From: Candidatus Parcubacteria bacterium
GTDB taxonomy: Bacteria; Patescibacteriota; Minisyncoccia; Minisyncoccales; JAGLUP01
Assembly: GCA_023134715.1 (NCBI GenBank)
Contig: JAGLUP010000005.1
Span: forward strand, 8,782 to 72,781
Direction of reading: 5' to 3'
Length of the DNA stretch: 64,000 nt
Below, piece by piece: positions 49,844 through 50,973 of the stretch. The notes beneath the pieces are model-generated. The model made no database searches and had not been told where the DNA came from. It worked only from the letters and a program-made list of their open reading frames with translations. Numbering within the stretch: position 1 is the stretch's first letter; each line of letters starts with the position of its first letter. A program made the translations under genes and the position numbers.

Positions 49844-50973
49844 ACCTTTAAGTTAGCATTTACTTTAATATTTTTCCAATTTTTTGTTTTTTGGTTTTTA
49901 TGATAATACGCTGTTATGGCTATCATCGCCGCATTGTCAGTGCAGAAAATTTTTGGGGGAACCAAAAATTTTAGTTTGTAGTTTATAGTTTGTAGTTTAT
50001 GGTTAAATTGCCTTCTTAACTCTTTGTTTGCTGTAACGCCACCGCCAAGAATTATAGATTTTGCCTTATATTGTTTAGCGGCTTTAATAGTTTTAAAAAT
50101 TAAAACATCAATTATCGCCTGTTGAATCTCCCGGCACATCTCTTGAATATATTTTTTTGACCTTGCTGTTTTTTCAGGCCGTTTTTTAAAATCATATAAG
50201 ACCGCTGTTTTCAACCCAGAAAAACTAAAATCATAATCCTTGCTATGAAGCATCGGTCTTGGCAACTTAGTTTGTAGTTTATAGTTTATAGTTTGTAGTT
50301 TCGCGGCTTCAGCGGAAATGGCAGGACCACCAGGATAATCTAACCCTAAAATTCTCGCTGTCTTGTCAAAACACTCCCCGGCCGCATCATCCCTTGTTTC
50401 TCCTAAAATTTTATACTTTCCAATTCCCTTCATTAAAATCAACTGCGTATGCCCGCCGCTTACCACTAAACATATCGCAGGGAATAAGTATTTTGTATTT
50501 TGCCCGCCCGCATCGCTACGCGAAGCGTTGCGGGCGGGGATTTTGATATCTGGTGGCAACCAATTAGCAAGTATGTGCGCTTCTATATGGTTAACTGGAA
50601 TAATCGGCAAATCCCATAAACAAGAAAGCTCTTTAGCAAAATTCACTCCCACCCATAAACACGGCTCTAATCCTGGACCTATCGTCACCGCAACCGCGTC
50701 AATATTTGGTTTTCTGAACTTTGATAATTTGGCTTTTCCTAATGCTTTTTTCAAAACTGGCTCTAAATTTTTCTGGTGTTCTCTTATCGCCATAGTCGGG
50801 TAAATTCCGCCATATTTCTTATGGATTTCAGCTTGAGAAGAAACAATATTGCTTAAAATTTTTACTTTTTGCTTATTAATCTCTAATACGGCAACGCAGG
50901 TATCATCGCAGGATGTTTCAATAGCTAAAATTTTCATTGCTCTTATTTTATCATTTGACTTGATTTTTTTCAA
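49840..50973 (-). CDS. tsaD: tRNA N6-adenosine threonylcarbamoyltransferase TsaD (with three in-frame repeat insertions)
   Basis: It has ILAIETSCDDT, HIEAHI, SGGHTQL, DFSFSGLKT and FCTDNAAMIA motifs. Confidence 0.9.
   Translation of the reverse strand: MKKIKSNDKIRAMKILAIETSCDDTCVAVLEINKQKVKILSNIVSSQAEIHKKYGGIYPTMAIREHQKNLEPVLKKALGKAKLSKFRKPNIDAVAVTIGPGLEPCLWVGVNFAKELSCLWDLPIIPVNHIEAHILANWLPPDIKIPARNASRSDAGGQNTKYLFPAICLVVSGGHTQLILMKGIGKYKILGETRDDAAGECFDKTARILGLDYPGGPAISAEAAKLQTINYKLQTKLPRPMLHSKDYDFSFSGLKTAVLYDFKKRPEKTARSKKYIQEMCREIQQAIIDVLIFKTIKAAKQYKAKSIILGGGVTANKELRRQFNHKLQTINYKLKFLVPPKIFCTDNAAMIAITAYYHKNQKTKNWKNIKVNANLKV
49972..49999. repeat. Heptamer tandem repeat (TAGTTTR)x4 inside tsaD
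   Basis: The repeat reads tagtttg tagttta tagtttg tagttta. On the coding strand it reads KLQTINYKL. Confidence 0.9.
50268..50302. repeat. Heptamer tandem repeat (TAGTTTN)x5 inside tsaD
   Basis: The repeat reads tagtttg tagttta tagttta tagtttg tagtttc. On the coding strand it reads KLQTINYKLQT. Confidence 0.9.
50502..50539. repeat. GC-rich palindromic mini-element in-frame in tsaD
   Basis: The sequence is gcccgcccgcatcgct-acgcga-agcgttgcgggcgggg, with 15-nt arms complementary at 14/15. Confidence 0.85.

Follow-up and report, generated by a model that had tools for sequence, protein, structure and literature searches.

The tsaD gene and its heptamer arrays

The DNA analyzed here is a 64-kb stretch of the Candidatus Parcubacteria contig JAGLUP010000005.1 (below, the window), and its subject is a pair of heptanucleotide tandem repeats that lie inside a 377-codon open reading frame (ORF) identified as tsaD. 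The product of this ORF matched the Pfam family PF00814 with E = 9.4e-85 and 284.9 bits, and the TsaD chains 6n9a_D and 4ydu_A of the PDB matched its residues 13-360 with E values of ~1e-67 to 1e-69. An identical public protein is annotated from M13 (position 50937) and has 365 aa. The HxxxH and CTDN motif columns (H129, H133, D346, and N347) are invariant in TsaD alignments, and by these matches the array-bearing ORF is assigned to the TsaD/Kae1/Qri7 family, with the predicted metal-binding HxxxH and CTDN motifs conserved. The essentiality of tsaD in this organism is an assumption carried over from other bacteria. The features of the gene are as follows.

49840..50973, minus strand: tsaD ORF (tRNA N6-adenosine threonylcarbamoyltransferase), identified by Pfam and PDB chain matches
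50268..50302, minus strand: heptamer array 1, coding strand (AAACTAY)x5, encoding KLQTINYKLQTK, ORF residues 225-236; corresponds to loop 1, the interval between YPGGP and LPRP
49972..50004, minus strand: heptamer array 2, coding strand (AAACTAY)x4, encoding HKLQTINYKLK, ORF residues ~325-335; corresponds to loop 2, the interval between ELRRQF and CTDN, and forms with array 1 a direct repeat of 34 nt (91% identity)
50488..50502, minus strand: two-unit heptamer remnant, coding strand (AAAATAC)x2, encoding QNTKY in a third variable loop; period 7 and 2.1 copies in Tandem Repeats Finder (TRF)
50503..50538, minus strand: GC-rich near-perfect palindrome with arms CCCGCCCGCATCGCTACG/CGAAGCGTTGCGGGCGGG, translated in frame as …PARNASRSDAGG…

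An earlier reading of the window (the original prediction) had reported two blocks of heptamers in the same orientation, about 270 nt apart and both translated, in what were taken to be variable loops of TsaD, and had offered as explanations either a phase-variable switch or a minisatellite that had colonized the ORF twice. The description was borne out by direct reading, by TRF, and by the Pfam assignment of the host gene. The block at 49972-49999 reads TAGTTTG TAGTTTA TAGTTTG TAGTTTA, which is (TAGTTTR)x4, and the block at 50268-50302 reads TAGTTTG TAGTTTA TAGTTTA TAGTTTG TAGTTTC, which makes five units. The blocks have the same orientation, with a gap of 268 nt and a start-to-start distance of 296 nt, and TRF recovered both at period 7, with 3.9 and 4.9 copies and 90-92% matches. 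Both are translated within the minus-strand ORF, as ...AAKLQTINYKLQTKLPRP... and ...FNHKLQTINYKLKFLVPP.... A unit of 7 nt does not divide into whole codons, so that each array passes through all three codon phases and is translated into a peptide with a period of seven residues, KLQT[T/I]NY, which appears as KLQTINY KLQTK and KLQTINY KLK at the two sites.

Exact matches to TAGTTTRTAGTTTR were found in the window at the two tsaD sites only, and when up to two mismatches were allowed there were 11 matches, compared to 3.6 +/- 1.9 in shuffled sequences, none of 100 of which reached 11. In the AlphaFold2 model of the protein (pLDDT 84.5, pTM 0.83) array 1 forms the end of helix 203-212 plus a coil, while array 2 covers the C-terminal end of helix 305-317 and continues through a turn into strand 323-325.

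Two other readings of the blocks were tried and rejected. A structured RNA element was discarded, because the array RNA folded no better than its shuffles (z = +0.75 and +1.5) and an Rfam scan found no family at the arrays, the neighboring tRNAs being its sole matches. The A/G differences between the blocks had also suggested a template and variable repeat pair like those of diversity-generating retroelements; this was dropped, because the blocks are only ~30 nt long and periodicity is their dominant feature.

Arrays of period 7 in tsaD orthologs

The DNA of 80 orthologs was compared together with the window gene, giving a set of 81 tsaD genes that belong to the candidate phyla radiation (CPR)/Patescibacteria. 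The data showed that these genes contain 88 arrays of period 7, six of period 8, and one of period 4, and that there are none of any other period between 3 and 15, including 3, 6, 9, and 12, although these in-frame periods would be the ones best tolerated by selection. In codon-shuffled controls 0.15 period-7 arrays were found. The preference was equally sharp when loop 2 was scanned for 21-nt stretches with at least 80% self-identity, which were present at lag 7 in 30% of the orthologs and at every other lag from 4 to 11 in 0%. Some of the six period-8 cases are accounted for by the orthologs L181 and L188, in which loop 1 contains a period-8 array, (TCGAAATG)x4, where others have period 7.

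The arrays are confined to five poorly conserved loops, with a column identity of 0.11 as compared to 0.47 elsewhere, in agreement with the placement in variable loops proposed at the outset, and the two blocks of the window are predicted to encode two permissive loops of a functional TsaD. The third variable loop, in which the window gene has two units, contains a full (AAATACA)n array in the ortholog L164 (gene positions 403-438). About 40 different units fill these loops, and their coding strands consist of 52% A and 4% G. The A/C-rich, G-poor composition is explained by the fact that every unit must lack stop codons in all three phases. In loop 1 the orthologous arrays have five units, the same register, and the same total length, while the units differ and include CAAACTA, AAACCTA, AAATTAC, AAATTTC, CAATTGC, GAAATCC, GAAATTC, GAAACCA, and CAAATCA. 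A fixed unit or a specific mobile element was rejected as the source of the arrays, because CAAACTA is only one among the ~40 units found in the same loops.

TsaD proteins 66-75% identical to that of the window carry near-identical peptides at both sites, among them KLQTTNYKLQTKL, encoded by a pure (CAAACTA)n array, and other seven-residue-period peptides of orthologs, such as MSNVKCQMSNVK, KFKIQNSKFKIS, and NFQFSIFNFQ, back-translate to other heptamers. The arrays are old, since they are common to orthologs at this level of protein identity. The alternative of a minisatellite that had entered the ORF twice is hence too narrow, as the arrays of the orthologs are old and occupy five loops. The original prediction had also named an outcome that would count against it, in which related genomes have identical unit counts and similar peptides encoded by non-repetitive DNA; similar peptides and the same unit count were indeed present in the orthologs, while the DNA that encodes them is repetitive.

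Constant number and changing sequence of the units

The arrays are read through in one frame in 80 of 80 orthologs. Where they bear arrays, loop 1 is 19 residues long in 20 orthologs and 21 residues long in eight, and loop 2 is 20 residues long in 14 of 17; loops without arrays have the same mode. A change of unit number was sought in eight close ortholog pairs, and a frameshift caused by such a change in 31 sequences read from ten 90%-identity clusters with 69 listed members, and neither was found. The comparison with sister genomes that the original prediction had proposed revealed no unit-number frameshift among orthologs or cluster members. The unit sequence varies freely while the unit number is nearly invariant, which is the opposite of what characterizes a contingency locus.

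The sole truncated candidate was P0148 (L201; compared with L202, which is P0040), and its break is located at the loop-2 array near a contig end. Both P0148, for which the contig was read, and P0152 diverge from their cluster exactly at the start of the loop-2 array. Heptamer arrays appear to act as assembly breakpoints.

The differences between orthologous arrays are themselves periodic. The autocorrelation of mismatches is 0.62 at lag 7 and remains at 0.57 at lag 14, while other lags give about -0.1, which means that the differences are unit-wide and that the arrays are not decaying relics. For example, L181 and L188, which have 89% core identity, differ by G to A in three of four units, with the length unchanged.

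Whole loops also differ between nearly identical genes. Near-identical tsaD backbones (L121/L122; P0003, P0004, P0011, P0130, P0131, and P0162) carry alternative cassettes, the sites of which are the N-terminal loop, loop 1, and two insertion sites. Between L121 and L122, with 99.1% core identity, a patch of ~75 nt that spans loop 1 is replaced, and among the differences within it are synonymous changes in the GGP codons beside the loop. On one backbone the versions of the N-terminal loop and of loop 1 are found in each of their four combinations (P0003, P0004, P0011, and P0131). These patterns suggest short-patch recombination limited to the loops.

Heptamer arrays beyond tsaD

The window as a whole contains seven period-7 arrays, as compared to 0.2 expected under a third-order Markov model. 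Period 6 is represented by four arrays (0.4 expected) and period 10 by one (0.05 expected), and the other long periods show no comparable excess. TAGTTTR arrays occur in the 64 kb at the two tsaD sites only, and the remaining arrays use other units. They are located in the following intergenic tracts.

2119..2148: (CATGAAA/CATGGAA)x4.3
9807..9832: (GTTTAAG)x3.7, directly after the terminator-like hairpin AAAAAACCGCATTAACGCGGTTTTT (9786-9832 with the array), between convergent ORFs
43139..43280: composite tract of ~140 nt with at least four side-by-side arrays, AAATGAA, AAATAAT, ATTTTAG, and ATTTTTC, between divergent ORFs
47727..47802: (AAAATCC)x3.4, overlapping a perfect 10-nt repeat, (TCCAAATTGT)x2.7 (47745-47771), then (AAATTTT)x3.4

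The last tract lies between two small ORFs, the products of which both start with hydrophobic, signal-peptide-like N-termini.

The same period prevailed outside the window. In 180 kb of tsaD-flanking DNA on other CPR contigs, 16 of 31 arrays had period 7, and seven of these were located in long ORFs. The array (CAAACTA)4, read in frame as KLQTTNYKLQ, was found in CPR genes for MurB, PrmC, RNase H, FolD, phosphoglycerate kinase (PGK), a release factor (RF), and Pol I, in Wildermuth-, Uhr-, Azam-, Wolfe-, and Saccharibacteria and in another Patescibacteria genome. The original prediction had noted intergenic heptamer arrays and considered heptamer expansion a genome-wide habit; it was right about the arrays, and the counts in the window, in the orthologs, and in the flanking DNA support the habit and extend it to the clade. 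Because translatable (CAAACTA)n arrays are present in many housekeeping genes of the CPR, a group of ultra-small bacteria, the tsaD arrays are, as judged from the sequences, one case of a phenomenon that runs through the CPR/Patescibacteria.

When reference genomes were scanned by sequence alone for (TAGTTTR)4, at least 120 loci were returned, and the matches listed also included Parabeggiatoa and many Bacteroidota. Among the matches listed, the Bacteroidota arrays were mostly stop-containing (TAGTTTA)n located in intergenic DNA, and they occurred at several intergenic loci per genome, as in Lepagella muris (L007, L023, and L052). Further loci among these matches were in a Bacteroides metagenome-assembled genome (L025, L027, L042, and L080), in Pontibacter (L044, ~18 units), and at L086 (20 units). 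The Bacteroidota (TAGTTTA)n arrays are often flanked by the one-base variants TGGTTTA and TAGTTCA, and they look like a family similar to the STRR (short tandemly repeated repetitive) sequences of cyanobacteria.

GC-rich palindromes in the array loops

The loops that harbor arrays are also the sites of GC-rich palindromes. A whole-window scan for inverted repeats was dominated by AT-rich palindromes, and a GC filter was applied for the hairpin counts. With this filter, the tsaD genes contained 72 GC-rich hairpins, as compared to 18.4 in shuffles, and these were clustered in the array loops. In many orthologs unrelated, perfect GC-rich palindromes are located there, and the changes that distinguish their arms from species to species are compensatory. 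The GC palindromes of the window have no sequence in common with each other.

The palindrome of the window gene at 50503-50538, which adjoins the two-unit (AAAATAC) remnant, belongs to an insertion of ~19 residues relative to the solved TsaD structures, and the region is missing from the Thermotoga maritima TsaD in the phmmer alignment. As RNA it would form a hairpin of -29.8 kcal/mol (z = -5.8), and the AlphaFold2 pLDDT falls below 50 at model residues 132-146, in the palindrome region, which is modeled as disordered.

More GC-rich hairpins with stems of 10-18 bp and no common sequence are located in the window at 14270-14306, 48424-48465, 51235-51257, and 60345-60372. The second of these lies just upstream of tRNA-Leu, and the third is translated within the C-terminal part of the ORF of the CCA-adding enzyme (51156..52718, minus strand). 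The same ORF contains a GC-rich in-frame segment at ~52583-52619, which encodes RRSESEGGRGVE within the otherwise conserved GGCVRD...D.D region and looks like a further small insertion; it is no clean palindrome. The tsaD gene is flanked by tRNA-Leu(tag), tRNA-Glu(ttc), and tRNA-Ala(cgc), at 48477-48561, 51002-51077, and 51082-51153, respectively, and its stop codon is overlapped by 4 nt by the gene of a PrsW-family protease (49121..49843).

Origin of the arrays

The observations to be explained are the specificity for period 7, the restriction of the arrays to loops, a length and register that stay constant, the concerted unit-wide differences, and the occurrence in many housekeeping genes. 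We consider it probable that the blocks are stable heptanucleotide microsatellites, produced as a 7-nt-specific homogenizing process at the DNA level overwrites permissive loops throughout the CPR, and that they are not a switch. Such a process, with a sharp preference for an offset of 7 nt, would make weakly constrained coding and intergenic sequences periodic and would keep them so, and in coding regions only those products would survive in which the frame and the loop length are kept and no stop codon arises in any phase. During replication the nascent strand could misalign transiently, or switch its template, at a preferred 7-nt offset, by which quasi-repeats would be turned into perfect repeats without insertions or deletions, as quasi-palindromes in these loops would be turned into perfect GC-rich ones. 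The preferred distance of 7 nt might then reflect a property of the replication machinery, in line with the footprint hypothesis that is credited to Mrazek et al. (2007). A second process, short-patch recombination, would shift whole loop cassettes between alleles.

Several points weigh against this explanation. The generating mechanism is inferred. The pattern of unit-wide differences fits in-place homogenization and repeated replacement by new arrays alike. The synonymous changes in the flanks of the L121/L122 patch point to imported DNA and not to local conversion. The array density of about one per tsaD gene, as compared to ~0.09 per kb of flanking DNA, is a confounded figure, since tsaD was picked on account of its arrays, which the orthologs inherit, and the excess in tsaD may also have a gene-specific cause. 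All the comparative tsaD sequences come from metagenome assemblies, and the 90%-identity cluster of the window TsaD has a single member.

The switch offered as one option by the original prediction, in which slipped-strand gain or loss of single 7-nt units would toggle tsaD, is very unlikely. The arrays share with contingency loci a unit that is not a multiple of three and lies inside an ORF, and there is a precedent in neuO, in which the repeats of 5'-AAGACTC-3' are translated only when their number is divisible by three (PMC13001214). However, four to five units that are interrupted by G/A differences, with 90-92% matches, do not make a long near-perfect tract, and the uninterrupted frame in all 80 orthologs, the identical counts in close pairs, and the 31 cluster members free of unit-number frameshifts give no sign of switching. 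TsaD, MurB, PGK, RF, Pol I, and FolD have housekeeping functions. The presence of arrays in the genes of MurB, PGK, RF, and Pol I, which are implausible targets of switching, also speaks against a switch, and TsaD has none of the functions under fluctuating selection (surface, host-interaction, or restriction-modification) that mark contingency loci. A second tsaD copy, which the original prediction had asked about, was absent from the window. Selection at the protein level for a structural peptide of the KLQTINY type, with the DNA periodicity as a by-product, is just as improbable. It could account for the peptides kept between orthologs at 66-75% identity, for the helix and strand segments in which array 2 is modeled (pLDDT ~80-85), and for the sequence ...RWNYEVFF... 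at the aligned place in the T. maritima TsaD, but a selected heptad predicts a periodicity of 21 nt and not of 7 nt. Moreover, a unit stands for unrelated residues in each of its three codon phases, the units differ widely between orthologs, similar arrays occur in intergenic DNA, and the periods 3, 6, 9, and 12 are absent from the tsaD genes.

There is a small chance that the arrays are functional binding sites in mRNA or single-stranded DNA for OB-fold proteins (Csp, S1, or SSB), one per heptamer, which would adjust translation, co-translational folding, or replication across these segments. In heptamer direct repeats bound by CspB, each heptamer takes up one protein, and the readers proposed for the TAACTGA heptamer repeats of Beggiatoaceae are Csp, S1, and CsrA (PMC4679880); the A/C-rich composition of the arrays, their unstructured RNA, and their conserved length of about five units (~35 nt) would suit such proteins. 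On the other hand, ~40 units at the same position argue against sequence-specific recognition, many orthologs have a non-repetitive loop or a GC palindrome there and keep the gene, and the conserved length is equally well explained by the length of the protein loop, which orthologs without arrays share. A more serious possibility, although still less likely than local formation, is that the window arrays were imported as cassettes by short-patch recombination through the conserved flanks YPGGP/LPRP and ELRxQF/CTDN. The replaced loop-1 patch of L121/L122, with its synonymous flank differences, and the four loop combinations on one backbone are in its favor. Import accounts for the spread of arrays and not for their origin or their 7-nt periodicity, and it is compatible with the 7-nt homogenizing process as the second process named above; metagenome mosaics could be partly chimeric, while the divergence limited to loops on an identical backbone is real regardless. 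An artifact of assembly or sequencing can practically be dismissed. In two cluster members the sequence breaks right at the loop-2 array, and repeats do disturb assembly, but in-frame arrays conserved in position were found across 80 independent assemblies from many samples, and the identical protein was present on two contigs, with NCBI and ENA as sources. Autoregulation of tsaD through N6-threonylcarbamoyladenosine (t6A) and ANN codons had also been considered and was dropped, because the same arrays are present in unrelated genes.

Comparison with known repeats

An excess of heptameric simple sequence repeats (SSRs) in bacteria and a polymerase-footprint hypothesis to explain it are attributed to Mrazek (2007) in passages of PMC4692102 and PMC4679880. 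The arrays described here agree with the long SSRs of bacteria, including the STRR sequences of Calothrix and Nostoc, in their tandem 7-nt units and in the excess of period 7, for which slippage or footprint explanations have been proposed; like other members of the long-SSR class they consist of head-to-tail 7-nt copies and exceed other long periods in number. The recurrence of one unit at many dispersed loci, which defines STRR families, was not seen within the 64-kb window. Long SSR and STRR repeats are mainly intergenic, and STRR families reuse few fixed units at many loci. In 1997 Vioque reportedly described STRR arrays inside the functional RNase P RNA gene of cyanobacteria. Unlike STRR sequences, the arrays studied here are translated as parts of conserved housekeeping enzymes, where they occupy homologous loops throughout a clade, with ~40 units and a fixed length. 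Units that are multiples of three have been reported to be likeliest in coding regions (PMC4679880).

The TAACTGA repeats of marine Beggiatoaceae, Cyanobacteria, and Bacteroidetes (MacGregor 2015, PMC4679880) are likewise heptamer direct repeats, present in 2-6 copies, and one of their orientations can be translated in all three frames into a seven-residue peptide repeat, as is the case here. That system has one specific unit, located mostly just upstream of start codons and, when in ORFs, mostly at protein termini, and a regulatory role has been proposed for it. The tsaD arrays differ in having many units, in being internal to catalytic domains, and in showing no pointer to a regulatory position. 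The variable-number tandem repeat of neuO in E. coli K1 also has a 7-nt unit in an ORF that is translated only when the frame is kept; it has 3-53 perfect repeats, 20 being the commonest number, it is out of frame in 66% of genomes, and ~7% of the cells in one culture were length variants (PMC13001214). In contrast, tsaD has four to five imperfect units, and no variation of their number was seen among orthologs and clusters. The amino-acid tandem repeats of Borgs similarly come from a repeat process at the DNA level that writes fast-evolving new peptide segments, although the Borg in-ORF units are all divisible by three, unlike those in tsaD (PMC9879509).

A model for length-neutral conversion of several nucleotides at once, and an explanation for the GC palindromes that share the loops with the arrays, is offered by the correction of quasi-palindromes, as template switching creates and maintains hairpins according to passages of PMC8794818 and PMC8604942. 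In those passages the correction is described for inverted repeats, and the analog for direct repeats with a 7-nt offset is our own proposal. The GC palindromes also invite comparison with another group of repeats. The palindromic elements of Rickettsia are a dispersed family of ~100-150 bp with a shared sequence, and they are inserted in frame in housekeeping proteins as surface-exposed segments. Both these elements and the palindromes in the window are palindromic and translated in frame, while the Rickettsia elements share one sequence and the window palindromes do not.

The heptameric SSR excess, the STRR and TAACTGA families, and the translated neuO repeats are hence already known. What is new within the literature searched is the presence of arrays in conserved CPR housekeeping enzymes at homologous loops, their fixed length with changing units, and the GC palindromes in the same loops. 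As far as the searches reached, length-neutral rewriting had no earlier description as a mode of protein evolution.

Implications

Genes with such arrays should not be annotated as phase-variable. Loops of this kind mislead alignment, phylogeny, and scans for positive selection, and they create assembly breakpoints.

The excess of heptanucleotide repeats has been known since 2007, is still without an explanation, and has been treated as an intergenic curiosity. A process that acts in frame inside the essential enzymes of a whole radiation would provide a clean natural experiment, because selection on the peptide is minimal in these loops, which allows the 7-nt signal to be ascribed to DNA mechanics. 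In hundreds of orthologs the homologous loops could serve for counting conversion events and for seeking the responsible polymerase or repair genes, and if 7-nt rewriting does take place, the arrays would be a natural read-out of the misalignment distance of the polymerase. It is tentatively conceivable that in the CPR/Patescibacteria an unusually strong, length-neutral rewriting at a 7-nt offset, a property of the replication or repair machinery, continually turns the weakly constrained loops of essential enzymes into arrays, and that perfect GC palindromes arise in them through a related process, so that a measurable share of the proteome of these organisms may come from the mechanics of mutation and not from selection on amino acids.

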